A stretch of 64,000 nt of DNA from a virus: IMG/VR virus record IMGVR_UViG_3300009164_000047, positions 1-64,000 of that record. The stretch is one strand, 5' to 3'. Below the pieces are notes generated by a model. The model saw only the letters and a program-made list of their open reading frames with translations, made no database searches and was not told where the DNA came from. Made by a program: the position numbers and the translations under genes. Positions 26,801-58,973 of the stretch are shown in pieces (positions within the stretch are counted from its first letter, which is position 1; each line of letters opens with the position of its first letter).

Positions 26801-29800
26801 AATCAGAATATTTCCCAACAATGTCCGGTGGACAGATGTTAGATGATGTATTGCAACAGATTGCTTCATATAAACAAGAAAGTGATAGTTTCTTTTGGTC
26901 AGATATGTTACCTGCGAGAGCACCATATATCTCTAAAATTTATACATTCAATGCATTTATTGATACAAGCTTCTTCCCATTAAGCAAGATATATGATTTT
27001 AAAAATGCAAACTATAATTCAATTTTAGTTTATAGTAAGAATACTGTCGGCGGGATTGATAGATACACTCAATTAATTAAAGATTTAGATTATACTATTA
27101 GCAGTACTCAGCCTAAATTACAAATTACTAAGGATTTAGTGGCAGGGGATACAATCATAGTCAACGAATATAATACTACGTATGGTAGTTATGTTCCAAA
27201 TACTCCTAGCAAATTAGGATTATATCCTGCAAGTCGCCCAAGTATTGTATTAGACAACAGTTATCTAATTCCTACGTATTTTATTAAAGGACATGACGGA
27301 TCATTAACTAAATTGTTTGGTGCATATAATAATGGTTACTTAGAAGATTTTAAAGATAAAGTTTTATTAGAGTTTGAAACTCGTATCTATAATAACATCA
27401 AAGTAAGTGCTCCTATTCCAATCAAAGAAGATGAAATTATTCCTGGTTACTTTAGAAGCACCGGCAACTCAATAGCAGAAGTTCAAAATATATATTCTGT
27501 TAATTTCTTAGACTGGGTTGGTAAGAATAACATTGACTTTGCAAATAATTTTTATTCTTCAAGTGAAAAATTTACTTGGAATTACAAAAATGCTACAGAT
27601 AAAACTAATAAAGTTATAACTCAAGGTTTCTGGAGAGGAATATATTTGTGGTATTATGATACTACCACCCCTCATTCAACGCCATGGGAGATGTTGGGAC
27701 TAACAGATAAACCTTCTTGGTGGGATGCTCGTTATGGTGAAGCACCATATACTAGCGATAATAAAGTATTGTGGACAGACATTGAGGCAGGAAGAATTAA
27801 TGGAACAGTTAATTCACGTAGAGCAAGACCCGGATTGTCTACAATATTGCCGGTTGATTCATATGGTAATTTAAAGAATCCATTTAATACAATGGTTCGT
27901 GATTATAGTAAGGCAGTATTTAACACTGCATGGGATGTGGGTGATGTAGGTCCTGCAGAATATAGTTATAGAAGAAGTAGTAACTGGCCATTTGATTTAA
28001 TGAAGATAATTGCATTATTAAAACCTGCAAAGTTCTTCTCATTGGCACAGGATATAGATTTATATACATATAGTTCAGAATTTAACCAATTCTTGTTGGA
28101 TGGATTCCTACATGGGAATAAAATTCCACTATTGTATGGTAATGGGACAGCACAGCATGGTTATATGAATTGGATTGTTGATTATGTTCAACGAACCGGA
28201 CACATAGGACATAATAAAGTTACATCATTATTAAACAATTTAGATGTAAGATTAATTTATAGAATTGCTGGTTTTACCGACAAAGAATATTTAAATTTTT
28301 ACTTAGAAAAAACAAGCACCAATTCAAATAATGTGTCATTGTTGTTACCTAGTGAAAGTTACAATGTAATGTTGTATCAAAATCAACCTGAATTTACTAT
28401 TCGCTATAGTAGTATAATTATACAAAAAACTTCTGCTAATGGATATTCAGTTACCGGTAATAGTCAGACTCGTTCATATTTTATGACATATACATCCGAC
28501 CCGGATGGTACGTACAAAGTAATTGAAGTAAATGGTAAAAAGGTTAATATACCTAATAATTACAGCACTGTAATTAAATATGTTCCTTATGGTACGGTGT
28601 TTACTACAGCGCAATCACTGGGTGAATTCATTACAAACTACGGTAGATATCTAACCGACCAAGGAATACAATTTGATAATCAAGAAAATGAATTCATATT
28701 AAACTGGGAACAAATGGTTGCTGAGGCACTATATTGGGTAGGCGCAAATTGGGAAGTTGGAAGTTTGATTAGTATTAATCCAGTTGCAAATTGTTTAGTA
28801 ATTAATAAAGATAGTTTAATTGTCCAGCCACTTACCGCACAGGATAAGAATTTTATTTTGAATCAAAACTTATATGCAATTCATTCAAGCGATTTAGCAA
28901 TATTAAGAGATGACACTAGATTTGAAGTTAGACCATTAAATGATGGTGATACTATTTCATATTTTACTGCCAGTTTAAATTCACTAGAACATGGTATTGT
29001 GTTTGATAACGTGTCATTGTTCAATGATACAATATTCAACAAACTTACCGGATTACGTCAGAATAGATTGTTCTTGCGAGGACAAAAAACTGCTGAATGG
29101 AATGGTACATTAAATGCTCAAGGATTCTTATTAAATCAGGATAATATTGAAAATTGGTCAGCGAATGTAAAATACGTTAAGGGTTCTATTGTAACACATC
29201 AGAACAAATATTGGATGGCTAATAAAACGGTGTTGGCATCACTTACATTCAATTCAAATGATTGGATTGAAACAGATTACGAAAAGATTCAAAAAGGGTT
29301 ATTACCCAATGCAAGTACACGTGCATCAGAAAGTGCATTGTACTATGATATTAAAAATGCTAACTTAAAGAATGATGGAGATTTGCTAGGGTTCTCATTG
29401 ATTGGATATAGACCTAGAGATTACTTATCTGCTAGTGATTTATCAGATATTTCACAAGTTAATTTATATAAAAGTTTTCTTAGTGAAAAGGGAACTAAGA
29501 ATGCAGTTAATATTGCTCAAAACATTACATTAGATGTTGGACAAATCAAATATGATGTATATGAAAACTGGGCTATTAAGACTGCTGAATACGGTGGAAT
29601 AACTAACCATAATTTTATTGAATTCAAACTTAACAAAACTCAATTAACTGGTAATCCCAATATCATAGGTATAGTAAATGATAAACCTGAATCAGGACTA
29701 TTACAGACTATTCCTTTATATGGACTAACTAATTTTGGATCAGTAATTACAGACATTAATATTCTACCTAGAAAACCCCTTGATTATTTTGAGAAGTTAC

Positions 29801-32800
29801 CAAGCGCAGGATATGTAAACTTTAATGACATTAAGATGTTTAGCTTATCATTTGACAGATTGAGTGTAGGTACGCTGACTGCAAATGACATATTTCAGGG
29901 TGATTATATTTGGATTGCAGATGACTATGGTAGTTGGAAAGTAACTACACCAATTCCAATGGGTACTATTAATAAACATGTTAATGCTATAAGTGTAAAT
30001 AATAATTTTAATGGTACTGCTACATTTGAATTTGATTTCCCGCACGGGTTAGTAAAAGACGATACATTTATGATTGTTAACTATGATTCCTCTATTGACG
30101 GGTTTTATAGAGTTAATACTGTAGGTGGTCTAACAACCGTGACAGTAGATTTATCATTGCCGTCAGACACAACCTCAATCAATAGTTTGGGTATTGCGTC
30201 TAAGTTTCAAACTCAACGCATAACAACCACAAAAGAATTATCTAATTTATTATTAATGAATGACGGGGCTAGTCAACAAAAAGTATGGGTTGACACTGAC
30301 CAAAATGGTAAATGGGCAGTATTGCAAAAAGATTTAAGCTACAAATATACTAATTTATTAAAACGATCAGGTACACAGAATTTTGGTAACTCTGTTATAT
30401 TTGATAAAGACTTAGGAATATATATTGGAGATCCTGGAGCAAGAACAGTTTACAGATATGCTTATGCTAAGGCAGGTACGTATGGTGTAACTTCAATTAA
30501 TGCAAATACATATGAATATAAAGAATCAGCATATGTAAATACAGCTGGATTTGGTACTGCAATGGCTAAATCAGATGATGTTATTATAATTACTTCACCT
30601 GGTGCGACAAACAGTTATGTCTATGTTGGTGTATTACATCCAAGTACGCATAAATCGTTTATTGTTCAACAAGTAATTACTATTGCCGGTAAACGTGTAG
30701 GTGATGCGGTAGCATTATCTGGTGATAAGAAATGGTTATATTTAAGTTCTTTAACAGAAGCAAAAGTTTATGTGTATAGACTTGATGATAATGTTATTCG
30801 TGTATCTGCTGGATTTGTACTCTCATCTGCAATCGCAATCTATGCTACTGGTTTTATAGTTAACGGAGACCAGTCTGATGGGTTAGGTCATGGAGATAAA
30901 GTTTCATTCTCTAATGCTATCAAAGCAGAATCATATGTAATTGAAACTAGTGAATACAATTTAGGTACAAATAAGACTACTTTTTACATTGAAGGTAATT
31001 TTAAATCACTAGTAGCTACTGGAACTACAGTCTATAAAGCAACATATAATTATTCAAGTGTAACAACATTAAATGTGTCAGATGTTATTCCTGCTTGGTC
31101 AGGCTCTACACCCTACAGTGTAGGTGCAGTGGTATTTCATAGTGGTAACACTTATATAGCAGTAGGCGGCAGCACTAACCAAAATCCAAGCACCCAGACA
31201 GTATACTGGAAAGTATCTAACACTGGCTTTGGTACTACTTTATCTACAAATTTTGATGGAAGTAAAGTTTTTATCAGTGCACCTACATTAGATTTTACAC
31301 CCACACTATTCAATATGGGTGCAGTATATGTTTATAACAGAATAGTGCAAAATATTACATACGTGCGTGACTCTATTGATTGGACAGATTTAACTACTAA
31401 GCTAGCGTGGTCTCCTGCAAATGGTATTTCAGTCTCACATAATGGTCAGTTACTAGTTCCTGCAATAGATTACACTACCACAGCTAACACAGTTACGTTT
31501 AAATATCCGTTTAGAGTTGGTGCAGGTGATGTAGTTAATATTAGTTCAGGCGACTTTGTTTTCACACAAACTCTTACACCATACGACTATAGAACAAGTG
31601 TTAGATCCAGTATTGCATTTGGTACAGGATTAGACACAAATATATTTGGCAATGATGTTCTTGTTGGTGCACCGTTCGATATATCAGTTGATAATTATGA
31701 AGGTGCAGTCTATAGATATACACATGAAGGTAAAAAGTACGGCACAATTACTGGAGTAAATGCAGTAACTTTGGTTTCTACTGCAACTATTTTAATCAAC
31801 GGAACAGTTGTAGTATTACCTAGTACAGGTTTAAATAATATTGTTACTGCTATTAACCAAGCAGGAATATTAAACGTGATAGCAACTGCCATTGATGAAA
31901 CTAAACTACAGATTAGTTTACGTGATCCTAAATTAGGTAGATTAAATGACAAATTAACAATCACTGTGTTTAACAAATCTGTACTAGATAGTTTAGGAAT
32001 CAAAGAGTACACCCAAACACAAACTATTAGAGAAGTTCATAATACTACAAATCCAACTCAATTTGGATATTCTATAAAGTTTAATGAATATAACTCAGTG
32101 GCGATTAGTGCGCCGGTGGCAAATAGATTTGCCGCAACAACATTTGATTTTATTGACGATAGTAAATCAAATAATGACACGTATTTTGATAATAACTTCA
32201 CTAGATTTATTGATTCATTTGCAAATGCAGGTGCAGTATTTGTTTATGACTATATTGCAGAATATAATGAAAGTCTAAGTAACTTAGGTAGTTATGTATT
32301 TGCTCAATCATGTAATGATTTAATTACTAACATTGGACCTAGTGCATTCTATGGTAGACAATTAGCATTTAGTGAATACACATTGGTTGTTGGTATACCT
32401 GATAATTATTCAGGAGATGGATTTAATGGTAGGGTAGTTGCTTATAAAAATCTTACTAACAAACCAAATTGGAACATATTTAGAAAATCAAATGATGTTG
32501 TTGATGTTGATAGATTATCCGGAGTTCAAATATATGACAACGACACCAATGAACGTAGTCAATCATTAGATTATATTGATCCATTGCAAGGCAAGTTGTT
32601 GGGTGTGGTCATGGAAAATCTAGACTATGTTGATAGCATTGACCCTGCTGGTTACAATACAGACGTTAGAAATCATAACTTAGTTTGGTCTAGTGAATAT
32701 ATAGGTAAACTATGGTTTGACACATCCTCAACTCGTTTTGTAAACTATCACCAAGAAGATACTGTATATAATAGTAGATATTGGGGCACTGTTTTCCCTG

Positions 32801-35800
32801 ATAGTGTAGTAAGCGTATATACGTGGGTCGAGAGTGATGTTACTCCCGTAAACTACACAGGAACAGGAACACCCTACGACTTAGAATCATATACAACTAC
32901 AGTCGAAGTTGATAATGCAGGATCATTAGTATTGAAATACTATTACTGGGTAAAGAATACTAATGTTATTCAAAGTACTAAGGGCAAAACTCTATCTGAT
33001 ACAATTTTAGAATTATATATTGCAAATCCAATAACATCAGGTGTGCCATTCTTTGCGGCATATAAACCAAACGTATTTGGCTTGTATAATGCTAGTGACT
33101 TTATAACAGATTTAACCTCTAGTTTATATATTGGTTTCAGTTCTGGTAGTAACGAAACACCGGCATACAATGAATATAAATTAATTCGTGCAGGTTATGA
33201 AGATGACTTTATTGCCGGTATCCCCTCAATGTATACCGAGCATAATGAACCAGAAGCGATGTATGAAAAATTACTAGACAGTCTTGCTGGTATGGACAGT
33301 CAGGGTCGTGTAGTACCCGACATTACATTACCTAAGTTAATGCAAACTGGTACAGCATATAGACCTAGACAAAGTATGTTTAAGAATAGATTAAAAGCAT
33401 TGGCTAACTATTTTGGATATGCTAATACAGTATTGAAACAATACCCTATCGCTGAGTTTAAAACTCCTAGTTTGCTAGGTTCTAGTAATAGTGAAAGTAG
33501 TACAGTAAGAGCACCTACATTCTTTACTATAGCTGGAGTTGATTTTGATACAACTAAGTATTGGGAATATATTTACTGGTGGGCTGAAGGTTATAGTGTC
33601 AATACTAAAATTGACGTTGAAGTTTCTAAATATTATGGTCTTGCCACACTGATCCCGTACCTAGGTATGATCGCCGGTGTTACTATGAATAGTGATGGTA
33701 AGCGTGAAGTATATGTGTACAACGGAAAGTCATGGGATAGGATTGGATTAGAACAGGGTACAATTCAAATCAAAGAATCATTGTGGAATTATTCTGGATA
33801 CAAAATTGGTTTTGACAGTAATTTCTTTGATTTAGATGCATATGATTCATATCCTTCAATGGAAACTCGCTATATAATTCGTGCATTGAATGAACAAATT
33901 TACACAGAGACATTGCGAATTCACCGTAATAAGAGTTTGATATTGTTGTTTGAATATATTGTAAGCGAGAATACAACTTCACAAAACAACTTAACTTGGT
34001 TAAATAAAACATCATTGGTAGATGTACAGCATACATTACGTGAATTAGCACAAGATAAAAACTATAAGCGTGATAATCAAGTGTTCTTGGAAGGCTTCAT
34101 TAATGAAGTTAAACCTTATCGTGTTGTCATTAAAGAATTCTTATTGAAGTACACTAAAGCAGAATCATTTACTGGACAGGTAACTGACTTTGATTTGCCG
34201 GGCAGATATAGCGTTACTACAGATAGATTTATAACACCTAATTTAGTTTTTGATTCAGTAAGAGCTACCGGACAAGTTTTACCTACTGATGCTATCTGGA
34301 CTGATAGTTTATATTCTGACTGGTATAGTAATTACGGTATATCATTGACCGGAAGTGCCAACAATCCAATCACATCTTTGGAAATATATTTAGATAAAAT
34401 TAGCGATGTTTTGTATGTAGATGATGCTTTTGGATTACCAGTAACTGGAAGAATTAAAATTGATAATGAGTACATTAACTATTCTCAAATTGACAGAGAA
34501 AAGGGTAAATTATACAGTTTAACTCGCGGCGCAGGTGATAGTGATGTAGCTAACCATATCCCAGGAACAATTGTGTATATAGATTTACCGGGAGTAGTAC
34601 TGTTAGATTCAGGAAGAGACTATATTGACCCTCCACAGATTAGTGCAGTAATTGATTCAACAATTTATCCTGCACCAACTAGACCTGCTACTCTTATACC
34701 AGTTATGTCAGGTGGAAAAGTAATTGACATTACTGTAACTGATCCGGGATTAGGATATACAACTAAACCGGATATTGTTATTCAAGCATCAATCACTATA
34801 TTATTTGATAGTGCAAATATTAACTACAATGATAATACTATAAACATTAATGCAGTTTCGTTATTAACCGGAGATGCAGTAAAATATATCAAATCATTAA
34901 CAAGTCTTGGTATCTCTGGGTTACAAAACAAAAAATATTACTATGTGCGAGTGATTAGTACAGACAGTTTATTTTATAAAAAATCAGTTATAGCATTGTA
35001 CACTACCAAGAATAATGCAATGATAGATTCACGCAGAGTGAATTTAGCTGAAAGTATAAACAGCATTAATAACAAGTTGGAAGTTTCTGCAAGAGCAGTA
35101 CCAATAGTATCCAATACACCAACAAGAGAATTAACTTCTACACTAAAATTTGACAGAACAAGTTATAGAACTAAGGTCGAAGAATGGACATCCGGTGAAT
35201 ACTACGGTAGTGTTGTTACTAATAATGGTGTAGAAAGTAGTTTAGACTTATCAGTGAACTATGCTATACCGTATCCGGGACTTACTGGAGTAGCAACTCA
35301 CCCAGGATCAGCTACTGACGGAACTGGTGCAATATTTACAATATACAATATATTGTTTGGTCTATCTTACGATGCTGAAATTACTTTTGCAGGTGCATCA
35401 TACGATGTGGGTGATATTATAACCATATCAGGTGCCAATCTAAGTGGAATCTCATCTACAAATAATTGCGTCTTAACAGTTACTACAATTAGTAATGTAG
35501 GCGGAATAACTTCAGTGACTGTTGCAGGCACGCCATCAACCGTTACACGTGCAAGTATTCAACAAGCAGTATTACCAATCACTAACGTGAGTTCTATAAA
35601 TGCAACCATTGCATCTACTACTAACGGTATTATATACGGTAATCAATTTGCCGCTGCTGGAACTATTAATGGATTGTTTATTTCAGGAATGGTACTAAGC
35701 GGTGGAACTATTCCTGCAAACTCAGTTCACATTACTAAAGTTGTAACTGCTAAATTTACTGCTGAAATTTTTGGTACATCGTCAGTTAAAATATTGACAG

Positions 35801-38800
35801 GAACTCTACCAAAAATAGGCATGCTGGTTACCGGATTTACAATACCAGCAAATACATTTGTTATTTCTGTGTCTAGTGAATACGTAGAGTTGTCTAACAT
35901 TATCAGAATAACACCGGCAGTTCAGTTTATAGACTTTACTGGAGTGATTTACGATCTTAACACCACCGTTACTACTCAATTAAATGTTGCAATAACCGGC
36001 ACATCAGGTGATTCCGTAGCAACATTAAATTATTCAGTTACAAACTTACAACCAGGACAAATTAAAGGTCTACAGTTATATTTTTATAAAATTATTAATC
36101 CATATACATATGTTGATTCAAGACCCGGCGGTGCAACTATCAAGGTGTTTAAGCCAAACTTCTCTGCTCAAAACATAACAAATAAGTACTTCATTCAAAT
36201 TATTGATCCTGGTACTATTTACGCTAATGGTGATGTTATTGTAATTAACGGTAGCAATTTAGGTGGTGTGAATGGTATTAATGATGCTAAGATTACAGTA
36301 AAGCTAGCAGATTATATAACTAATGAAATAAGCGTATATGAATTAAACGGGGTAGCAGTTAACTCTTTTGAAAAATACTATGTCAAGCCTATTAGTCAGA
36401 CACAAGTTGCGTTATTCTATGACACCTCACTAGTAAGACCTGTACCAAACCATGCATTTACATTCCTAAGTGGTGATTATGCATATATTCCAGAACCAAT
36501 CTACATTACATCCGGACACACTCGCAGTCCATATAGTTTAGTAACATTCAATAATACATTATATCGTTGCATGGTAAGTAATAATGATATTGCATTTGAT
36601 TTTAACAAATGGGAAGAAGTACGTAGTGATGAATTTGATTTGAATGCATTAGATAGAATCATGGGATTCTACAATCCAACAGACAACATGCCAGGTAAAA
36701 ATCTACCAATGTTAGTATCTGGTATTGATTATCCAAATAATACTTACTTTGGTCAACCGTTTGATGACTTAGTTAATGAACTAGATACTGTATTGAAGGA
36801 TCAAATATTCTATCCAAGCAATATCAATTTACGTGGTATTATCGTAGCCGAACAAAACTTGTTGGTTGCAATTGGTGATACTGAATCATATTCTATTATA
36901 TTGTTAAGTCACGATACTGGCGTAACTTGGACTATGAAACAAATCAGTAAAAATGTATTAAATGTACAAGACATTAGATATGATGAAGGTCATTATGTTA
37001 TCGTTACAAGTAATATACATTCACCTGTCGTAACCAGCAACGACTTAGAAAATTGGGTATCAGTGGGAGAATTTACACCATACGATACTAATAAATTTGA
37101 TGATGTGGGATATGATAGTTCATCAATTTCTGCACCAAAAGATAAATTGTACAGTGTAATTTATAACAACAATTTCTATATTGCTGTGGGTGATGAATTA
37201 CTAATCAGCCCGGACAGCTATACTTGGAGTGTTCAATATAGCTTCAGAAGTTCATTACCTCAACAATTTAAACGTGTAGCTTATGTATCTTCTGCATTCT
37301 TTGACGGTTATATTGCTACTGGTCTTGGTACAATTACTAATACTACTGTTAATGGATACACATCATTGGTATCAACTTCTAAAACTTTCAGAAGTTTGAA
37401 CGGTCTTGATTGGGAAGAAATATTACCAAGAGTAGTATCAACTGGATTAAATGTAGTATTATCATCTGGAACAGCTATTGTTTTAGCTGGTGACAATTAT
37501 CAAGTTTTCACATCAACTAACTCTCATGCATGGGATCCGGCATCAATTGACGGTACTGCAAAGACATCTAATCTGTTAAACGGTATATATGCTAACGGAA
37601 TGTTTGTTATTGTGGGCGATGATGGTACCATTATAACTAGCCCGGATGGAATTATTTGGAGTGAAGTAGTATCTAATACTACCAAGACATTGACTGCAAT
37701 AACATATAGTGACGATAATTGGATTATTGTTGGATCCGATGCTACTATTCTACGTAGCACTGATGCTGTTATATGGCAAAATGTATCATTGATTAAGACA
37801 GAAGAAAACTTCTATCAAATCAAAGGTGATCCATTCATTTCTGGTTATGGACCAGAGGAATTAGTTCCCGGTGTATTAACAGATACGTTAACCATGACTG
37901 TTACAACTCGCCCGGGAAGTACATGGCTAGTTGAAGATTATCCATTCAATGGATTTACAGTTAAAAAATTCATACATGCACTTACTGATTTACCAATAGA
38001 CTTTTCTCTGATTACCGAGAATCCTGCACACGTTGCATTATACTTAATGGATTCTTCTACTAAGTTAGGTTTTAGAATTTATCAAGATATAACACCTACT
38101 ACATCTAATAGCTATTCATATTCAATCAATTGGATTACTCAATCAATCACGCTAAGTGCTTTGGATGGTGTTAGTTTGTATGATAACACAAAATATCTAC
38201 AAATTGAAGTATATGAATTTGGTAATGGCAATCAAGAAGTTAGAAGTAATTCGCAGAACTTGCCTTTACGTATTGATCCTGTTACAGGTTATAGTGAAAT
38301 ATGGTTAGGTTATGCATACGCACCGGAAATATATGCTACTCCTGTTGTTTACTTAAACGGTAACCCTTTAATATATGAGGATGATTACAAAATATCAACC
38401 ACCGCATCTAAAGAAGCTAAATTATTGTTCACTACAACATACCATTCTGAAACTGATTATTTAAGTTTTGCAATTATGGGTCTAGAAATTAACTCTAAAC
38501 AAAATAGTTTCAGTATTCCACAAACACAAGTATTTGAAGTTGCACCATCTATAACTGAATTAGTTCTCACTAATTTTGTTGGATTGTCTTCAGATGGTTA
38601 TACCAATGATGTAGATGCTATTGTAGAATATAATGGTGTAAGATTAATTCCAACTATCCAGTATACTATTGCAGTTGATCCTAATTCAGAAATTGGTACA
38701 GTGACATTATTGTTTAATCCGGCATCTGGCGAAGATTTGATTAGTGTTACTACATTCCATGATACCCGTGACCAATACTTGTTAACAGAAAACATTAACA

Positions 38801-39924
38801 CATTACAAGTAACTCCACTATTAACTGTCAACACTGATAAAGGTGAGTTGACATTAATCGTTACTACGGTACCTGAATTTGTCACCGGTGACTTAATAAC
38901 AATTGATGGTATTAACGGTACTACACAATTAAATGGTAATGAATATTATGTTAGATTAATGACTCCTGTAACAGAGGATGCAATAACATATCAACCAATT
39001 AAACTATTCTATGATGTATTGTTGGCAAAACCAGTAACTGGTAAAATACTAACAAGTTATGTGTCTGGTGGATATATTTGGAAATCTGACACTACACATG
39101 AAATAAATCAACCTGATTTAACGTTGACTAATATTAATAGATTGTTTGTGACTATTAACGGATACAAAGTTGACAACAGTAGACTTAAACTTAAGAGTGG
39201 AAACAAGCTTAATATTTTAGAACCTATTACTACGGGTGATGTTGTTTTGATTACCAGTATGATTACAAACGCTACACCCAATCAACTAGTATATGTAAAT
39301 CACATTGATAAAAATGGTGAACAATCAATATACCGAGCAAATACAGGTGTCAGAACTTGGTTGACAAAAAACTTAGAAGTACTTGACAGTCAAATATATG
39401 TCGAAGATGTAGCTAAGTTGTTAGATTTAGTCAAAACAACCGTAGTTGCAGCTACAATAAATGAAAATGTTGCGTGCCTTGTAAATTACGCAGTCGAGAC
39501 CATTAAGGAAATTTCTGTATATAATATTTCTACACTAACTCAAATAAGTACAGAAAATATTACATTGGCTATTAAGAATTCTAGACCAGTGATTTATATA
39601 GCTAAAGGTGCTTCTGAAGGTGATAACTTGGAGGTTTCACTACGACTAGGTAACACTATCAATATTGGTGGGGAAATTATTACTTTTAAGAAAGTTAATA
39701 CTGAGACTAATACAATTTCAGGAATTACCCGAGGAGTAGATGGTTCTGGTGCTAGATTGATGCATTCGGAATATACTATGGTCTATGGTGTAAAATTGAC
39801 AAATACATTGTTCAATTTCTACTATAACCGTACTTGGAACAGTGAGGACTATTCAGTTGAGGGTGATCCGTTGCAAGTCAGTGACAGCTTCCCGGCTAAC
39901 TTCTTGCAGGTCGGTACAGAATAA
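23809..39924 (+). CDS. Giant (5371 aa) baseplate wedge protein, gp7-like, with propeller and carbohydrate-binding-like insertions
   Basis: Follows gp6. RTIDFLPEIF N-terminus, EKGTKNA and EVKPYRV wedge-like motifs, FG..GAVYVY repeats, SxDGxxW repeats. Single uninterrupted ORF. Confidence 0.75.
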   Translation: MANRVRTIDFLPEIFRTETNNQFLGATLDQLVTPPKLDKIEGYIGRKFEYGLTASDSYIVEPSKIRQDYQFEPGVIFTKTNTSTAVDFLTYPGLVDALVSENGSVINHSKLFANQFYSWDSFVDLDKLVNFSQYYWLPDGPDVVDVKTSLLYNKLDYVVTNQSIDYSISANDISLGKNPIITLLRGGTYTFNVSQPNKFYIQTSPGTSGKNPSRVNLTSREIYGLDNNGIDAGFMTFTVPYATDQDNIKYPGNNPVDIVCTLPFEKVHGMPLSKLKEIDGINSLRNRTLMFYGFKPGTTAKLTNFYDNVAFDDVTYDGGDTTVITNNFYKINYVSEDDGDPVIILTEQKVIPTNQKITAIFGETFISRDFVKNQLGEILQLAQITADLDTLYYQDAVDPLKTGLIKLVEDNASHKINVEAEILGKKTYKSPFGVVFTNGMKINFVGSIFPESYKDKKYYVEGVGTGIELVPETDVLVPETFSQIVYKSYDNEGFDTSTFSERLNVPVVKDYITISRNAKNRNAWSRSNRWFHINVLKATALYSSGKISNAALNNADNRAKRPIIEFYPNLKLFNSGTMHKTFVDFIDTTTTNANTQVSGQTSYIPDGSLPLFDGATIVFTADNDVEVRNKIFTVRFRSITGSGSPIITLTNANKDVIVANEQVVSKRGTNNVGKTYYFNGSNWSYSQAKTLINQPPIFDVFDINGVSFSNQSYYQGSDFKGTKLFSYAIGTGTDDIILGFPIKYSSVANIGDINFNIDFNSDSFNFIKNFVSTTYNITDGYVHNYTSLTAYNRKIGWETAIGESFQYQAFEFEYTIGKSFSTLKFNILPVTSSPWPTVKVYFDSTELTSSQFTVKTSTTLNQTTVTLLFPPVVNTMMQVLIYSNDPLDSKAYFTIPSNLSNNPFNVDIPELSLGDLRGHYQSIYNNSRKITGDVFGANNFRDVGNLIPYSTKIIRNSAPMVKLAAFMRHPEYNLIDSLSFNAQEYVKFKQLMLSTVDQSEYFPTMSGGQMLDDVLQQIASYKQESDSFFWSDMLPARAPYISKIYTFNAFIDTSFFPLSKIYDFKNANYNSILVYSKNTVGGIDRYTQLIKDLDYTISSTQPKLQITKDLVAGDTIIVNEYNTTYGSYVPNTPSKLGLYPASRPSIVLDNSYLIPTYFIKGHDGSLTKLFGAYNNGYLEDFKDKVLLEFETRIYNNIKVSAPIPIKEDEIIPGYFRSTGNSIAEVQNIYSVNFLDWVGKNNIDFANNFYSSSEKFTWNYKNATDKTNKVITQGFWRGIYLWYYDTTTPHSTPWEMLGLTDKPSWWDARYGEAPYTSDNKVLWTDIEAGRINGTVNSRRARPGLSTILPVDSYGNLKNPFNTMVRDYSKAVFNTAWDVGDVGPAEYSYRRSSNWPFDLMKIIALLKPAKFFSLAQDIDLYTYSSEFNQFLLDGFLHGNKIPLLYGNGTAQHGYMNWIVDYVQRTGHIGHNKVTSLLNNLDVRLIYRIAGFTDKEYLNFYLEKTSTNSNNVSLLLPSESYNVMLYQNQPEFTIRYSSIIIQKTSANGYSVTGNSQTRSYFMTYTSDPDGTYKVIEVNGKKVNIPNNYSTVIKYVPYGTVFTTAQSLGEFITNYGRYLTDQGIQFDNQENEFILNWEQMVAEALYWVGANWEVGSLISINPVANCLVINKDSLIVQPLTAQDKNFILNQNLYAIHSSDLAILRDDTRFEVRPLNDGDTISYFTASLNSLEHGIVFDNVSLFNDTIFNKLTGLRQNRLFLRGQKTAEWNGTLNAQGFLLNQDNIENWSANVKYVKGSIVTHQNKYWMANKTVLASLTFNSNDWIETDYEKIQKGLLPNASTRASESALYYDIKNANLKNDGDLLGFSLIGYRPRDYLSASDLSDISQVNLYKSFLSEKGTKNAVNIAQNITLDVGQIKYDVYENWAIKTAEYGGITNHNFIEFKLNKTQLTGNPNIIGIVNDKPESGLLQTIPLYGLTNFGSVITDINILPRKPLDYFEKLPSAGYVNFNDIKMFSLSFDRLSVGTLTANDIFQGDYIWIADDYGSWKVTTPIPMGTINKHVNAISVNNNFNGTATFEFDFPHGLVKDDTFMIVNYDSSIDGFYRVNTVGGLTTVTVDLSLPSDTTSINSLGIASKFQTQRITTTKELSNLLLMNDGASQQKVWVDTDQNGKWAVLQKDLSYKYTNLLKRSGTQNFGNSVIFDKDLGIYIGDPGARTVYRYAYAKAGTYGVTSINANTYEYKESAYVNTAGFGTAMAKSDDVIIITSPGATNSYVYVGVLHPSTHKSFIVQQVITIAGKRVGDAVALSGDKKWLYLSSLTEAKVYVYRLDDNVIRVSAGFVLSSAIAIYATGFIVNGDQSDGLGHGDKVSFSNAIKAESYVIETSEYNLGTNKTTFYIEGNFKSLVATGTTVYKATYNYSSVTTLNVSDVIPAWSGSTPYSVGAVVFHSGNTYIAVGGSTNQNPSTQTVYWKVSNTGFGTTLSTNFDGSKVFISAPTLDFTPTLFNMGAVYVYNRIVQNITYVRDSIDWTDLTTKLAWSPANGISVSHNGQLLVPAIDYTTTANTVTFKYPFRVGAGDVVNISSGDFVFTQTLTPYDYRTSVRSSIAFGTGLDTNIFGNDVLVGAPFDISVDNYEGAVYRYTHEGKKYGTITGVNAVTLVSTATILINGTVVVLPSTGLNNIVTAINQAGILNVIATAIDETKLQISLRDPKLGRLNDKLTITVFNKSVLDSLGIKEYTQTQTIREVHNTTNPTQFGYSIKFNEYNSVAISAPVANRFAATTFDFIDDSKSNNDTYFDNNFTRFIDSFANAGAVFVYDYIAEYNESLSNLGSYVFAQSCNDLITNIGPSAFYGRQLAFSEYTLVVGIPDNYSGDGFNGRVVAYKNLTNKPNWNIFRKSNDVVDVDRLSGVQIYDNDTNERSQSLDYIDPLQGKLLGVVMENLDYVDSIDPAGYNTDVRNHNLVWSSEYIGKLWFDTSSTRFVNYHQEDTVYNSRYWGTVFPDSVVSVYTWVESDVTPVNYTGTGTPYDLESYTTTVEVDNAGSLVLKYYYWVKNTNVIQSTKGKTLSDTILELYIANPITSGVPFFAAYKPNVFGLYNASDFITDLTSSLYIGFSSGSNETPAYNEYKLIRAGYEDDFIAGIPSMYTEHNEPEAMYEKLLDSLAGMDSQGRVVPDITLPKLMQTGTAYRPRQSMFKNRLKALANYFGYANTVLKQYPIAEFKTPSLLGSSNSESSTVRAPTFFTIAGVDFDTTKYWEYIYWWAEGYSVNTKIDVEVSKYYGLATLIPYLGMIAGVTMNSDGKREVYVYNGKSWDRIGLEQGTIQIKESLWNYSGYKIGFDSNFFDLDAYDSYPSMETRYIIRALNEQIYTETLRIHRNKSLILLFEYIVSENTTSQNNLTWLNKTSLVDVQHTLRELAQDKNYKRDNQVFLEGFINEVKPYRVVIKEFLLKYTKAESFTGQVTDFDLPGRYSVTTDRFITPNLVFDSVRATGQVLPTDAIWTDSLYSDWYSNYGISLTGSANNPITSLEIYLDKISDVLYVDDAFGLPVTGRIKIDNEYINYSQIDREKGKLYSLTRGAGDSDVANHIPGTIVYIDLPGVVLLDSGRDYIDPPQISAVIDSTIYPAPTRPATLIPVMSGGKVIDITVTDPGLGYTTKPDIVIQASITILFDSANINYNDNTININAVSLLTGDAVKYIKSLTSLGISGLQNKKYYYVRVISTDSLFYKKSVIALYTTKNNAMIDSRRVNLAESINSINNKLEVSARAVPIVSNTPTRELTSTLKFDRTSYRTKVEEWTSGEYYGSVVTNNGVESSLDLSVNYAIPYPGLTGVATHPGSATDGTGAIFTIYNILFGLSYDAEITFAGASYDVGDIITISGANLSGISSTNNCVLTVTTISNVGGITSVTVAGTPSTVTRASIQQAVLPITNVSSINATIASTTNGIIYGNQFAAAGTINGLFISGMVLSGGTIPANSVHITKVVTAKFTAEIFGTSSVKILTGTLPKIGMLVTGFTIPANTFVISVSSEYVELSNIIRITPAVQFIDFTGVIYDLNTTVTTQLNVAITGTSGDSVATLNYSVTNLQPGQIKGLQLYFYKIINPYTYVDSRPGGATIKVFKPNFSAQNITNKYFIQIIDPGTIYANGDVIVINGSNLGGVNGINDAKITVKLADYITNEISVYELNGVAVNSFEKYYVKPISQTQVALFYDTSLVRPVPNHAFTFLSGDYAYIPEPIYITSGHTRSPYSLVTFNNTLYRCMVSNNDIAFDFNKWEEVRSDEFDLNALDRIMGFYNPTDNMPGKNLPMLVSGIDYPNNTYFGQPFDDLVNELDTVLKDQIFYPSNINLRGIIVAEQNLLVAIGDTESYSIILLSHDTGVTWTMKQISKNVLNVQDIRYDEGHYVIVTSNIHSPVVTSNDLENWVSVGEFTPYDTNKFDDVGYDSSSISAPKDKLYSVIYNNNFYIAVGDELLISPDSYTWSVQYSFRSSLPQQFKRVAYVSSAFFDGYIATGLGTITNTTVNGYTSLVSTSKTFRSLNGLDWEEILPRVVSTGLNVVLSSGTAIVLAGDNYQVFTSTNSHAWDPASIDGTAKTSNLLNGIYANGMFVIVGDDGTIITSPDGIIWSEVVSNTTKTLTAITYSDDNWIIVGSDATILRSTDAVIWQNVSLIKTEENFYQIKGDPFISGYGPEELVPGVLTDTLTMTVTTRPGSTWLVEDYPFNGFTVKKFIHALTDLPIDFSLITENPAHVALYLMDSSTKLGFRIYQDITPTTSNSYSYSINWITQSITLSALDGVSLYDNTKYLQIEVYEFGNGNQEVRSNSQNLPLRIDPVTGYSEIWLGYAYAPEIYATPVVYLNGNPLIYEDDYKISTTASKEAKLLFTTTYHSETDYLSFAIMGLEINSKQNSFSIPQTQVFEVAPSITELVLTNFVGLSSDGYTNDVDAIVEYNGVRLIPTIQYTIAVDPNSEIGTVTLLFNPASGEDLISVTTFHDTRDQYLLTENINTLQVTPLLTVNTDKGELTLIVTTVPEFVTGDLITIDGINGTTQLNGNEYYVRLMTPVTEDAITYQPIKLFYDVLLAKPVTGKILTSYVSGGYIWKSDTTHEINQPDLTLTNINRLFVTINGYKVDNSRLKLKSGNKLNILEPITTGDVVLITSMITNATPNQLVYVNHIDKNGEQSIYRANTGVRTWLTKNLEVLDSQIYVEDVAKLLDLVKTTVVAATINENVACLVNYAVETIKEISVYNISTLTQISTENITLAIKNSRPVIYIAKGASEGDNLEVSLRLGNTINIGGEIITFKKVNTETNTISGITRGVDGSGARLMHSEYTMVYGVKLTNTLFNFYYNRTWNSEDYSVEGDPLQVSDSFPANFLQVGTE

Positions 39925-46080: not shown

Positions 46081-47496
46081 ATGACAGACGAAGAAAAATA
46101 TGCAAAGCATATTACAAAAACACGTGACGAGTTGAATGAAGTTAGTCCTAGCTATTGTGTAGCTAAGTGGAAACAAGTCACCATGCATTTGCAGAATGGA
46201 CATACACATAGCTGTCATCACCCACGCACACACTTAGTTCCTGTAGAAGAATTAAAACAGAATTACAAAGCACTTCACAATACTTCATACAAGAAACAAC
46301 AACGTAAATTGATGTTAGAAGGTGTGCGTCCAAGTGAATGTGATTATTGCTGGCGTGCAGAAGATGCAGGTAATATTAGTGACAGAACATACAAAAGTGC
46401 TGACCACTCTTGGGCATATGGTCACTTAAAAGAACTACCTAAATTAGAATGGGACGCTGATATAGACCCTAGTTACGTTGAGATTAGTTTTAGTAGCGTA
46501 TGTAATTTTAAATGTAGCTATTGCAGTCCAAACATCAGTAGTCAATGGATGGAAGAAATTGAAAGATATGGTGCTTATCCAACAAGCAATAAGTTCAACA
46601 ATCTACAATGGTTTCAACAGAATGACCAGATACCTATACCTAACAACCAAGACAATCCATATGTAGATGCGTTCTGGAAATGGTGGCCTACTATGTATAC
46701 AGAACTAAAGCAATTTAGAATTACTGGTGGTGAGCCTTTACTAAGTAAAAACACATTTAGGGTACTTGATTATATCATTGAGAACCCTGCAAATATACAT
46801 TTAACATTTAGCGTAAACACGAACATGAATGTACCTGATGAATTATACAATAAGTTTATTGAAAAGTTAAAAATAATTCAGGAGCAGGGTAAGATTGGGA
46901 GTTTACAAATCTTTACAAGTGCAGAAGCACATGGAGCACAAGCAGAATATATACGTAACGGTATGAATTACGAACAATGGTTAAAGAATTTGCATCGTAT
47001 GATTAATGAAGTACCTAGAGTAGCAATTACAATTATGAGTACTTACAATATTCTAAGCATTCCTAGCTACCGGCAGTTCTTGCAGGATATGCTTGACATT
47101 AGATTACAGTATAGAGACATTGCATACAAAAATAACAGAAATCCTGTGACAATAGATATGCCTTATCTACGTCACCCATCTCATCAAGCAAGTTTCATTA
47201 TACCAGAATATTTGTTACATTATGTAGAAGAACAAATTAAATTTATGGAAGCACATCCCGAGCCTAGCACGCCTGGACAAGAATATACAGGCTTTTATGA
47301 AAATGAAATATATAAGTTGCGTAGAATTTACAATATTATCAAAGCAGAGATTGATTCCGGTAATGATAACACCACTAATCGTAAAGATTTTGTATCGTTT
47401 GTAGATGAACACGACCGTAGACGCGGTACTAATTTCTTAGAAACATATCCCCAACTAACACAGATGTACACCGAATGGAAAAATTTATTGACATAA
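46081..47496 (+). CDS. Radical SAM enzyme with N-terminal twitch/SPASM-like Cys cluster
   Basis: CNFKCSYC (CxxxCxxC), ITGGEP; N-terminal C..SCH..CDYC. Confidence 0.9.
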   Translation: MTDEEKYAKHITKTRDELNEVSPSYCVAKWKQVTMHLQNGHTHSCHHPRTHLVPVEELKQNYKALHNTSYKKQQRKLMLEGVRPSECDYCWRAEDAGNISDRTYKSADHSWAYGHLKELPKLEWDADIDPSYVEISFSSVCNFKCSYCSPNISSQWMEEIERYGAYPTSNKFNNLQWFQQNDQIPIPNNQDNPYVDAFWKWWPTMYTELKQFRITGGEPLLSKNTFRVLDYIIENPANIHLTFSVNTNMNVPDELYNKFIEKLKIIQEQGKIGSLQIFTSAEAHGAQAEYIRNGMNYEQWLKNLHRMINEVPRVAITIMSTYNILSIPSYRQFLQDMLDIRLQYRDIAYKNNRNPVTIDMPYLRHPSHQASFIIPEYLLHYVEEQIKFMEAHPEPSTPGQEYTGFYENEIYKLRRIYNIIKAEIDSGNDNTTNRKDFVSFVDEHDRRRGTNFLETYPQLTQMYTEWKNLLT

Positions 47497-50548: not shown

Positions 50549-50650
50549 ATGTTTGAAAATTGGCATTGGGTTTATATGTGGGGCATTTTAGTTGTAGCCA
50601 ACTATATGTTCTGGATAGTAAAAAGTCTTTTTGACAACGTGAAAGAGTAA
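50549..50650 (+). CDS. Unannotated 33-aa single-TM protein (MFENWHWVYMWGILVVANYMFWIVKSLFDNVKE)
   Basis: TAAGG SD overlaps the preceding stop; hydrophobic, Trp-rich core; fills the gap exactly. Confidence 0.6.
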   Translation: MFENWHWVYMWGILVVANYMFWIVKSLFDNVKE

Positions 50651-51060
50651 GTTATTGCTGTATGAAGCAAAGAGAAAAGTGTTCTGGACGGGGGTGCGAA
50701 TCCCCCCAGGTCCACCATAAGGAAGTTTGTGAAAAGTAAAAGTAAGTTCAGTCGTTTTAATCTTAAAGGCAACATTATGTGGTGCCTAAATTTGCGTAAC
50801 GGATGGGTAAGAATTTACAACACTATAATTCGTTGGAATACCGATTGGACAACTAATTATAGATACTTTTCAATAGAACAAATAAAAGTTTCTTTATGAT
50901 GGGCCTGCATAGTTTCGACAGGGCAAGTAGTAACAGAGTGGACAGCACGGTAGGCGATGACCGTTAATCAAGCAAAAAAAGTAAACGCAAACGACTCACA
51001 GTTCGCATTAGCAGCCTAAACACTGCTTAGGGTAAGACATACCTCGTAACAGAAAATCAG
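50651..51060 (+). ncRNA. ssrA: Circularly permuted (two-piece) tmRNA
   Basis: Acceptor piece ~50651-50717 (T-arm GGGGG-TGCGAAT-CCCCC, then CAGGTCC-A-CCA) lies upstream of the coding piece, which starts GGGCCTG at 50901. They form a 7-bp acceptor stem with G3-U70. D-loop TTCGAC; tag ORF 50987-51019 encodes ANDSQFALAA*. Confidence 0.95.
50729..50899 (+). CDS. 56-aa basic/aromatic ORF inside the tmRNA intervening segment
   Basis: SD TAAGGA 50718-50723, GTG 50729, TGA 50897-50899. Fills the segment between CCA and the 5' G almost exactly. Confidence 0.6.
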   Translation: MKSKSKFSRFNLKGNIMWCLNLRNGWVRIYNTIIRWNTDWTTNYRYFSIEQIKVSL

Positions 51061-51087
51061 AAAAGGCTCTTAGGAGCCTTTTTCTTT
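51061..51087 (+). terminator. Intrinsic terminator of tmRNA
   Basis: AAAAGGCTC-TTAG-GAGCCTTTT followed by a T-tract. Confidence 0.9.
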
Positions 51088-51130
51088 GGCATAATTTTTC
51101 TAATAAATACTATATTAAATAGGATAAATT

Positions 51131-57803: not shown

Positions 57804-58973
57804 TTAAATAAACCAAGTTATAATACTGTATCGTGTGCCTTTAGTTACAGGCATTATTTCATGTGGGTACATAAAGTTACTAGGGAACATTAATACGCTA
57901 CCCTTTTTAAGAAAAACTTTCTTTTCTCTATCCCAAAAAGCAAACTCACCGCCTTCATAGTCATCATTTATTGCAAATGAACAACTAACTGCTCTCGGTT
58001 GTTTTAAGAAACTATCAGTATGCTGGATGTAAAATTGTCCTTCATTATATCTTAACAGTTCATAGCCACTATCTTGATCTATTCTAGCTTCTGGAAAAAC
58101 TTCATTATACTTTTGAATTGCAGTAGCGGCAGCTTTAAATAATTCTTCATCTAATGCTTTTCTTATTTCAGGATTTTGCTGAATAACAGCTTGGAAACTT
58201 AATCCAATGGTATCAGTATTCCGTATCTTTGTATCAAGAACTCCTGCACCTATAATAGTTGGTTGCCAGTCATTGCTATTTACATACTCACTTAAAATCC
58301 TATCACAAAGGTCATCGGAAACAATATTTTCAAATACTTGTATATAATCTTCAATATTCTTTTTGTATTCTACTTTGGGTAACATGACTTCTTTTGTAGC
58401 TTCTGTTCGTTTTTCCATTACTAATTTTTTTGTTTCTTTATCTTTGTTATCAAAGAATGCATAATTTCTATCACCCCTACTACGTACATAATGCAAAAAT
58501 ACTTGAACATATTCTTGCCCTTGAAATTGTTCACGCCAGTGTTCGGCTTCACAACCCAAATACATCATAGCATCTCCGGATTTTAAATTTAATGATACCT
58601 CTTCACCGTTTGGTTTTTTAATATAGATGGGCCATTCTGCGTCACCAGCTAAGTGTAGTGTTAAACTAATTTCACACGCATCCCTATCTTTGTGAATTTT
58701 TAAATCACTGCCTTCTTTATATACTCTTGCATAGGTGTATGTTGGTAACACTGGCTCACCCAAAAAATTATTAATCTGGGGTGTTCTTTCACATAACAAT
58801 TCTAAAAAGTCTATATAATTGTAAACTGCATGAGAATTTTCAACTTGAGTGTCACCGGGTAAATTTTCTTCAATACAATAATTTATGAATTTGTTATATA
58901 AATGATTTGCATGATCCTGTGATATAAAATTAGGGATGTATAGATAGTTATTGTCTATTAATTTCTGATTCAT
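57804..58973 (-). CDS. Tandem double 2OG-Fe(II) oxygenase (prolyl-4-hydroxylase-like)
   Basis: Domain 1: HKD..EHWR..FLHY. Domain 2: HTD..DDYEGGE..PHEIMPVTKGTRYSIITW. Confidence 0.85.
   Translation of the reverse strand: MNQKLIDNNYLYIPNFISQDHANHLYNKFINYCIEENLPGDTQVENSHAVYNYIDFLELLCERTPQINNFLGEPVLPTYTYARVYKEGSDLKIHKDRDACEISLTLHLAGDAEWPIYIKKPNGEEVSLNLKSGDAMMYLGCEAEHWREQFQGQEYVQVFLHYVRSRGDRNYAFFDNKDKETKKLVMEKRTEATKEVMLPKVEYKKNIEDYIQVFENIVSDDLCDRILSEYVNSNDWQPTIIGAGVLDTKIRNTDTIGLSFQAVIQQNPEIRKALDEELFKAAATAIQKYNEVFPEARIDQDSGYELLRYNEGQFYIQHTDSFLKQPRAVSCSFAINDDYEGGEFAFWDREKKVFLKKGSVLMFPSNFMYPHEIMPVTKGTRYSIITWFI

Follow-up and report, generated by a model that had tools for sequence, protein, structure and literature searches.

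An apparent slot for exchangeable protein-coding genes in the intervening segment of a permuted phage tmRNA

The DNA analysed here (the window, 64,000 nucleotides) is the first 64 kb of a 97.7-kb viral contig from IMG/VR (IMGVR_UViG_3300009164_000047) that CheckV scores as 28% complete, which puts the phage genome at the order of 350 kb. The source is an uncultured freshwater myovirus-like jumbo phage, whose baseplate wedge and hub, virion proteins and SbcC-like nuclease point to the myovirus type. ARAGORN reports a single RNA gene in the window, a permuted tmRNA (marked tmRNA*) that is called once, at 50625–51110 on the plus strand, with the tag ANDSQFALAA*. The Rfam model of permuted tmRNAs (RF04321, tmRNA_permuted) matches at full length across 50656–51019 (model positions 1–213), with 131.3 bits against a gathering score of 47. 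The order of the parts is that of a permuted gene: the encoded CCA at 50715–50717 comes before the 5′ G at 50901, which is followed by a tag frame at 50987–51019 that starts with an alanine resume codon and ends in a hydrophobic ..ALAA and a stop. The initial annotation of this stretch, made from the letters alone, had called a permuted two-piece phage tmRNA, and both programs agree with it. A small ORF for a 33-aa membrane peptide (MFENWHW...; 50549–50650, plus strand, from the ORF list) ends 5 nt before the acceptor piece of the RNA gene and has a dN/dS of 0.2–0.3.

The acceptor piece of the tmRNA (50656–50717, plus strand; RF04321 model positions 1–62, and part of the ARAGORN call) comprises the 3′ strand of the long helix, the T arm, the 3′ strand of the acceptor stem, the discriminator and the CCA. 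The coding piece (50901–51060, plus strand, with an approximate 3′ boundary; ARAGORN and RF04321) holds the 5′ acceptor strand from G50901 onwards, the long helix, the pseudoknot region and the tag frame with its TAA stop. Directly after it, at 51061–51087, lies a terminator-like hairpin with a GGCTC/GAGCC stem and flanking A and T runs; a scan flagged this palindrome on the minus strand, and in the plus-strand role that we propose for it the hairpin probably ends the precursor transcript. The two pieces are separated by an intervening segment (IVS, or spacer) of 183 nt (50718–50900, plus strand), which RF04321 leaves unaligned as an insert between model positions 86 and 87. Its limits are those first proposed, with the CCA ending at 50717 and the coding piece beginning with the G at 50901. 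By analogy with characterised two-piece tmRNAs, the IVS would be absent from the mature RNA.

Relatives were picked by one exact 32-mer, the 3′ end of the acceptor piece, which is identical in more than 119 viral contigs among the matches listed, and the family counts given below rest on these. A degenerate acceptor pattern matched only two Bacteroidota MAG contigs, of about 20 kb each, which are probably binned phage DNA and from which we draw no conclusion about the host. The window tmRNA resembles the betaproteobacterial two-piece tmRNA (RF01850; the general model is RF04321) in having the CCA piece upstream of the tag piece, an IVS between them and a tag ending in ..ALAA. On the window itself, the beta_tmRNA model RF01850 reaches 74 bits (gathering score 84) with a misplaced start at 50773, and the alpha and cyano models also stay below their gathering scores (45 versus 50 and 31 versus 70, respectively). 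These low scores would suit a tmRNA that is a decaying remnant, split by the insertion of a gene and of no further consequence beside that gene, a reading that we regard as extremely unlikely. Relatives with the same acceptor end and a short IVS obtain 102–143 bits on beta_tmRNA, above its gathering score; the shortfall of the window copy is therefore explained by the 183-nt insert, which breaks the alignment, and the window tmRNA is probably of the betaproteobacterial type. Decay is also contradicted by the full-length RF04321 match with its intact tag frame, by the identity of the 32-nt acceptor end in so many contigs, and by the conservation of both tmRNA halves, and of the stem that closes the spacer, whatever the cargo. 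Full-length RF04321 matches are kept in 12 of the 13 relatives tested, with IVS lengths of 70–491 nt, and thus the RNA gene is intact irrespective of what it carries. In L055, which has a 382-nt spacer, cmscan reported no tmRNA, even though the two halves can be seen. No intron family passed its threshold in the Rfam scan of the window, and a group I intron-interrupted tmRNA was rejected because the CCA and the 5′ G flank the insert, which is therefore outside the T-loop. The initial annotation had described permuted tmRNAs as a feature of alphaproteobacteria, some betaproteobacteria and cyanobacteria; this range needs widening, because two-piece tmRNAs also occur in aquatic phages, where they make up 53 of 133 unique phage tmRNAs, including that of the OM43 phage Melnitz (PMC9004378).

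Within the IVS, a predicted protein gene extends from a GTG start through 56 codons to a TGA stop (50729–50899, plus strand; ORF list, relatives and dN/dS). Its Shine–Dalgarno sequence, AAGGA at 50719–50723, is followed 5 nt later by the GTG at 50729, and the TGA at 50897–50899 leaves a single T before the mature 5′ G, all of which is as the initial annotation had placed it. Shine–Dalgarno-like sites precede 12 of the 31 long ORFs of this phage, compared with 6.7% of random sites, so initiation led by such a site is normal for it. Being a mere 56 codons long, with a GTG start and neither a Pfam nor a PHROG family, the ORF might be taken for a chance open frame in an AT-rich non-coding spacer. 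However, an ORF this complete appeared in just 0.4% of interior shuffles of the segment (p = 0.004), and relatives confirmed by tblastn are present in 6 viral and 22 metagenome contigs (28 loci), down to 56% identity. Over a 41-codon core, dN/dS is 0.08–0.48 for every pair with at least 8 nucleotide differences, with synonymous sites saturated in the most distant pairs, and the variable columns at codon positions 1, 2 and 3 number 21, 14 and 32. The two alternative frames contain 2–7 stops in every family member. Length changes stay in frame, as in L127 (a 6-nt insertion) and L140 (a 12-nt deletion).

The family extends beyond tmRNA spacers. Free-standing homologues in L149, L150 and L152 have their own Shine–Dalgarno sequence and ATG and a different C terminus, and in L141 and L142 a homologue sits immediately upstream of a tmRNA acceptor piece. 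A profile search against 1.84 billion representatives returned 27 clusters at E ≤ 0.001, 7 of them at E ≤ 1e-10, with lengths of 42–83 aa. The family is defined by a significant profile match together with a conserved Trp/Gly/Asn core (RYxLKG..WCLN..NGWxR..RWNTxW), of which G25, W26 and W36 are invariant in an alignment of 31 sequences; profile matches in the long proteins P0007, P0011 and P0028 were set aside as apparent artefacts of repeats, such as TPR, or of low complexity. Given the shuffles, the homologous loci, the selection on them, the free-standing copies and the related clusters, to which a confident AlphaFold model built with the family alignment can be added, a chance origin of the frame is scarcely credible and, as far as sequence evidence goes, already refuted. 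These signatures mark the 56-codon ORF as a true gene on which purifying selection acts. By the same comparison, its family also includes ordinary free-standing phage genes, and its association with tmRNA is positional, not obligatory.

The predicted 56-aa product has 10 K/R versus 2 D/E, a net charge of about +8, and four Trp, which fits its first description as a basic, Trp-rich protein. A first AlphaFold2 model from 8 close sequences only was poor (pLDDT 61), whereas the model from the 31-sequence alignment is a small all-beta fold with a pLDDT of 82.5. Foldseek found nothing in the PDB at E ≤ 0.001 for the AlphaFold2 model, and the best match from a wide VIA-align search had a Z of 4.7, inside the noise range stated for the tool. 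No Pfam or PHROGs model matches the product, and the ESM Atlas returned unnamed clusters only. With this model, the product can be described as a small all-beta protein, basic and rich in Trp, whose family has no name.

The IVS is closed by a long-range stem, in which the 5′ arm (50714–50726, plus strand) pairs with the 3′ arm (50886–50898, plus strand) in 13 of 13 positions, three of them G-U. The stem is present in both the MFE and the centroid structure of 50711–50903, and this fold beats all 200 shuffles (z = −3.4). The clamp of 13 bp with three G-U pairs that the initial annotation had drawn around the segment therefore exists, but it extends beyond the segment: its first two pairs use the CA of the CCA, so that the stem prolongs the acceptor helix, with a small internal loop between the two. 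The remainder of the 5′ arm holds the AAGGA, and the 3′ arm encodes the C-terminal (K)VSL of the protein and supplies the TG of its TGA stop; the closing stem thus does contain the Shine–Dalgarno sequence in one arm and the stop in the other, as had been suggested. In the predicted fold, base pairs involve the Shine–Dalgarno sequence and some of the start region, a pairing that could block translation instead of timing it.

The stem is kept throughout the relatives. In all 77 of the 77 spacers longer than 40 nt, the register is the same: the CA and the first 11 nt of the spacer pair with a stretch of 13 nt whose last two letters are the TG of the TGA, and many compensatory pair types are found. 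Across 68 distinct arm pairs, the eight variable columns are paired in 91.7% of cases, compared with 60% when partners are shuffled (maximum 67% in 2,000 trials), and sliding the 3′ arm by 1–2 nt lowers the paired fraction to 44–60%. Arms that bear a Shine–Dalgarno sequence give 88% versus 67% shuffled when taken by themselves. As such covariation needs both arms on one RNA, we infer that the acceptor piece, the spacer and the coding piece are made as a single transcript. The two tmRNA pieces could instead be independent transcription units, with the ORF as an ordinary small gene between them and no joint precursor; spacers of up to 491 nt that can hold two genes, and a neighbourhood in which small genes also lie directly upstream of the acceptor piece, would suit such an arrangement. 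We consider it very unlikely, because the covarying stem joins the first and the last 11–13 nt of spacers, long coding ones included, and because a consensus scan finds no promoter-like site between the 56-codon ORF and G50901. Characterised permuted tmRNAs, moreover, are made from one precursor (Keiler et al. 2000, as cited in PMC9004378). Directly 5′ of the acceptor piece there is no convincing promoter, the nearest sigma-70-like site being about 300 nt upstream, and sigma-70-like sites found by the consensus scan are not enriched over shuffles.

The stems of coding and non-coding spacers differ in composition. Those of coding spacers have more G-U pairs (2.06 versus 0.88) and are slightly weaker (−9.5 versus −10.7 kcal/mol), because AAGGA faces TCTTT or TTTTT. 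TGA is near-universal at the spacer end and is therefore primarily a structural element. It serves as the stop of the ORF in 14 unique coding spacers, including that of the window; about a dozen others stop 12–13 nt earlier, at the edge of the arm, and in at least five (L006, L084, L011, L025 and L096), as well as in a 115-nt family, the reading frame continues into the mature tmRNA. The common arm TCTTTATGA explains why unrelated cargo proteins have ..SL as their last residues. The free-standing homologues of the window protein end differently, and those in L141 and L142 keep ..KVSL, so the ..SL tail is imposed by life in the slot. Read across these spacers, the coding versions are ones in which the 5′ arm became a Shine–Dalgarno sequence and the stop is at or next to the 3′ arm, which supplies it or comes directly after it.

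To compare the spacers, we delimited them with a regular expression for the 5′ acceptor strand, which succeeded in 109 contigs and gave 81 distinct spacers of 25–491 nt; the loci left undelimited are cut by contig ends. Spacers with a Shine–Dalgarno sequence start with TAAGGA, AAAGGA, TAAAGG or TAAGAGG, have an ATG or GTG 5–9 nt further on and are filled by one or two ORFs. Those without one (no Shine–Dalgarno-like 4-mer in the first 12 nt) start with TAAGCATA, TAAACATA, GAAGTATA and similar sequences and are short hairpins, mostly of 55–119 nt, with no ORF filling them. The association between a Shine–Dalgarno sequence (yes or no) and an ORF that covers at least 80% of the spacer is strong (29/6/5/41 among the 81 unique IVS; Fisher p = 3e-11), and of the six apparent exceptions, four hold two genes or are nearly full. 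Conservation of the Shine–Dalgarno sequence, which the initial annotation had linked to the ORF, is thus seen in most of the ORF-filled spacers, but does not extend to the short non-coding hairpins.

The cargo falls into about 26 unrelated small-protein families among the matches listed, in a clustering that was curated by hand and from which spurious ORFs, beginning close to the end of the spacer and continuing into the tmRNA, were removed manually. Many are hydrophobic peptides of 23–41 aa. A CxxCxxCC protein matches PF03692 (29.4 bits, cut-off 23), and a GNAT acetyltransferase matches PF13508 (28.5 versus 27) and PF00583 (26.6 versus 20.7). Where two variants of another cargo exist, dN/dS is 0.06–0.14.

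Several spacers share genes in different combinations. The two-gene spacer of L058 combines the first gene of L032 with the single gene of L023, the second gene of L032 resembles the single gene of L037, and in L126 the gene of the window is followed by a 60-codon gene. Genes also move between the spacer and its upstream flank: the spacer gene of L111 sits upstream of the acceptor piece in L084, and a homologue of the 33-codon ORF at 50549–50650 is found inside the IVS of L006 and L084. The four nearest tmRNAs, whose coding pieces are 89–91% identical, carry 70- and 79-nt hairpins, a 284-nt CxxCxxCC gene and, once, the gene of the window, which itself occurs in at least four different tmRNA variants. 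On this evidence, the content of the slot is swapped independently of the tmRNA halves. The simplest reading is that cargo is exchanged by homologous recombination in the conserved halves, an interpretation drawn from incongruence, not from mapped breakpoints. The proposal of a cassette slot for cargo genes is thereby borne out in more than 100 contigs, with one- and two-gene spacers and cargo decoupled from tmRNA relatedness; related permuted tmRNAs keep the stem, and their Shine–Dalgarno-bearing spacers carry conserved (dN/dS < 1), interchangeable ORFs. In a blastn search of 50,697 phage records, the only match was the acceptor piece of Xanthomonas phage BUDD, in which the spacer is non-coding; no coding spacer came to light in a cultured phage. 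As separate observations on existing annotation, an annotated CDS of one cultured phage overlies a tmRNA that lacks annotation, and one database protein extends into the tag frame.

Taken together, we think it likely that the locus encodes a functional two-piece tmRNA of the betaproteobacterial type, the IVS of which has been taken over as a slot for accessory genes, and that its transcript is a messenger first and a tmRNA precursor afterwards. The acceptor piece, the gene and the coding piece would form one transcript. Ribosomes would bind to the emerging AAGGA-N5-GTG when about 170 nt have still to be made before the complementary 3′ arm is there, and would terminate at the TGA, which lies 1 nt short of the RNase P site. 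A ribosome that terminates there would occupy the first twelve or so nucleotides of the 5′ acceptor strand, which would make translation and tRNA-like folding mutually exclusive on one molecule at one time. Once the ribosomes have cleared, the stem would form, hide the Shine–Dalgarno sequence and stack on the acceptor stem; RNase P and 3′ trimming would then produce both pieces of the tmRNA, with loss of the messenger part. The order proposed here, with translation before processing, is deduced from geometry only. Between co-infecting phages, the conserved tmRNA halves would act as homology arms through which cargo is swapped.

The initial annotation had offered, as one of two alternatives, a different order, in which maturation (by RNase P at 50900/50901 and a cut after the CCA at 50717) frees the segment as a small mRNA that is translated only after excision, so that its output is coupled to processing. 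Both presumed cuts would leave the Shine–Dalgarno sequence, start and stop intact, and in the 14 unique coding spacers that use the terminal TGA the ORF ends 1 nt ahead of the cut, as though selection had kept it whole. We nevertheless find a released messenger improbable. The excised fragment would still form 11 of the 13 stem pairs, with the Shine–Dalgarno sequence occluded, and the ORFs that read on into the tmRNA in the five spacers named above and in the 115-nt family would be truncated by excision. Bacterial 3′ trailers, in addition, are usually degraded, and their removal is largely exonucleolytic. Translation of the nascent precursor is favoured over that of the fragment because the latter keeps these pairs and an occluded Shine–Dalgarno sequence and because trailers are usually degraded.

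A more far-reaching version of the precursor-translation model, which we put forward tentatively as possible rather than probable, is that the spacer is a dedicated, integrase-free gene-cassette system. The RNA halves would be its recombination arms and the stem its translation timer, allowing a short period of translation before the transcript is committed to tmRNA maturation, and small host-takeover or membrane proteins, the 56-aa protein among them, would be dosed through a ribosome-rescue gene. Cargoes that read through into the tmRNA would, in this version, become non-stop messages made by RNase P and tagged by the same tmRNA.

The arrangement can be compared with several known systems. 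In hok-type type I toxin mRNAs, translation is inhibited by fold-back between the 5′ and 3′ ends, with the ribosome-binding region paired to the 3′ end of the RNA. The window likewise has a small ORF with its Shine–Dalgarno region in long-range pairing with the 3′ end, and the cargo of its relatives often consists of 23–41-aa hydrophobic peptides. In contrast to hok-type mRNAs, there is no evidence of an antisense RNA or of toxicity for the slot, the predicted product here is a soluble, basic beta protein and the stem belongs to a tmRNA precursor. Phage morons and integron cassettes are small accessory genes, single or in tandem, that come and go at one fixed position with conserved sequence on either side. 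The slot shares with them its single or tandem small genes, fixed site and conserved flanks, but it is not known to have an integrase or an attC site, its flanks together form a functional RNA gene, one half on each side, and its cargo lies within the precursor of that RNA.

Among interrupted stable RNAs, group I introns with homing-endonuclease genes occur in the T-loop of tmRNA genes (PMC11915505). They too place a protein gene in a part that is missing from the mature tmRNA, but they are self-splicing, sit at a T-loop site and encode a selfish nuclease, whereas the window has no intron core or ligation and the cargo of the slot is small, diverse and non-nuclease. The nearest analogy we found is the 23S rRNA intervening sequence of Coxiella burnetii, present also in Leptospira, which contains an S23p ORF whose protein is apparently not made in vivo (PMC4990558). 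There, as would be the case here by inferred excision, a stem-closed segment that contains an ORF is excised from a stable-RNA precursor. The Coxiella segment differs in lying in helix 45 of 23S rRNA, in its excision by RNase III and in carrying a single ORF family, not an exchangeable slot for many families. An rRNA intervening sequence of this type was rejected as a class for the window, in which the host RNA is a tmRNA and the product has no Pfam family, and the likeness is one of analogy only.

In the published accounts examined, the IVS of two-piece tmRNAs is treated as a discarded spacer (the word ‘intervening’ is absent from PMC9004378), whereas the IVS of the window is a predicted protein gene under selection, in a swappable slot with a built-in Shine–Dalgarno sequence and stop. 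The 2025 tmRNA database contains 11,946 permuted sequences, only 79 phage tmRNAs and, as odd spacers, one tRNA-Ala gene and one repetitive element (PMC11915505). The IVS of the window resembles these unusual spacers in its exceptional content and differs from them in that the content is a protein ORF; an ORF in the IVS of a permuted tmRNA is not mentioned in that paper (‘ORF’ occurs 0 times in its text). Full-text searches of the literature found no report of a protein-coding IVS in a permuted or two-piece tmRNA. The class of RNA gene is therefore known, and its spacer as a selected, exchangeable protein-coding slot appears to be undescribed.

Stable-RNA precursors are normally taken as non-coding, and the spacer of permuted tmRNAs as waste. 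The locus described here indicates that a stretch of a stable RNA which was supposed to be discarded very probably doubles as a messenger. One short RNA would thereby be under dual constraint, with a 5′ arm that is both processing stem and ribosome-binding site and a 3′ arm that is at once the ..SL residues and the stop, and across relatives the same architecture carries about 26 different genes. For annotation, the consequence is that gene callers miss spacer ORFs or run them through the RNA. For phage evolution, the slot would be a hot spot of small-gene exchange that is flanked by an RNA gene. For RNA biology, it would offer a natural system in which translation and RNA processing compete on one transcript, and it may serve as a source of small phage proteins that are under selection, of which many are membrane peptides.

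Immediately beside the tmRNA gene of the window lies a 33-aa membrane-peptide gene (MFENWHW...; 50549–50650, + strand) that ends 5 nt upstream of the acceptor piece. Homologues of this gene are found within the tmRNA spacer itself, between the acceptor and coding pieces, on five other contigs (L006, L084, L033, L040 and L050). The dN/dS of the gene is 0.2–0.3. The spacer-borne copies lack an in-frame TGA, and their reading frame extends 39 nt into the mature tmRNA.

Two further reading frames overlap mature tmRNA sequence. The first encodes a CCxxGCxxCVW (Oxidored-like) motif and is associated with the 115-nt spacers of four loci (L010, L046, L049 and L071). The frame lacks a start codon inside these spacers; it opens at an ATG within the acceptor piece (..TGTATGAAGC..), spans the entire T arm and the CCA, and stops 12–39 nt inside the coding piece. 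Its conservation across the four loci is strong, and synonymous changes occur. The second is that of P0002, a 98-aa protein from an ENA metagenome that is related to the basic, Trp-rich protein encoded in the window's spacer. Here the TGA is out of frame, and the frame as called crosses the 5′ region of mature tmRNA sequence, enters the tag frame and ends in ...ANDELYAMAA, so that, judged from its sequence, the called product would itself bear the degradation tag.

Large cargo proteins are encoded in the spacers of L017, L062, L080, L117 and L055. These five proteins (101–151 aa) have in common the N-terminus MRI(N/K)E(I/L) and are otherwise unrelated. Four of the five genes also have the same 23-nt leader, TAAGGAGATTGAATAAATACTAG, which separates SD and ATG by about 16 nt and may be a common cassette boundary or may act as a split, structured ribosome-binding site.

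Among cultured phages, the 199-kb Xanthomonas phage BUDD (ON758385.1) carries a permuted tmRNA at 167.3–167.8 kb that is not annotated in its record (RF04321, 77.5 bits; ARAGORN tag VAANDADYSVARYA). Its spacer is stem-closed and non-coding, and a CDS annotated as 'hypothetical protein' (USV41083.1) overlies the acceptor piece and spacer. The 79-nt spacer of L077, also non-coding, holds a T-arm-like GGTTCGAGTCC element, which recalls the case of a tRNA in a tmRNA spacer mentioned in PMC11915505. One relative (L008) has some 30 tRNA genes arrayed beside its tmRNA; the 64-kb window contains no tRNA gene. In another relative, of 286 kb, the tmRNA is separated by about 4 kb from a GOLLD RNA (L032:10928–11336; 160 bits, truncated where the locus ends).

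Auxiliary genes near the window's tmRNA encode a radical SAM protein (46081–47496, +) and a fusion (57804–58973, −) whose N-terminal and C-terminal halves match PHROG families annotated as ferrochelatase and 2OG-Fe(II) oxygenase, respectively. Directly 3′ of the baseplate wedge gene is a single ORF of 5371 codons (23809–39924, +), the predicted product of which is giant by phage standards.

The phage-type tmRNA also occurs on 20–23-kb contigs binned into two Bacteroidota MAGs, a Crocinitomicaceae (L129) and a Haliscomenobacter (L130). One of their spacers is a 61-nt hairpin; the other holds a membrane-peptide gene of 84 nt that has its homologue in the L035 cargo. These contigs are either mis-binned phage DNA or a hint of the host.
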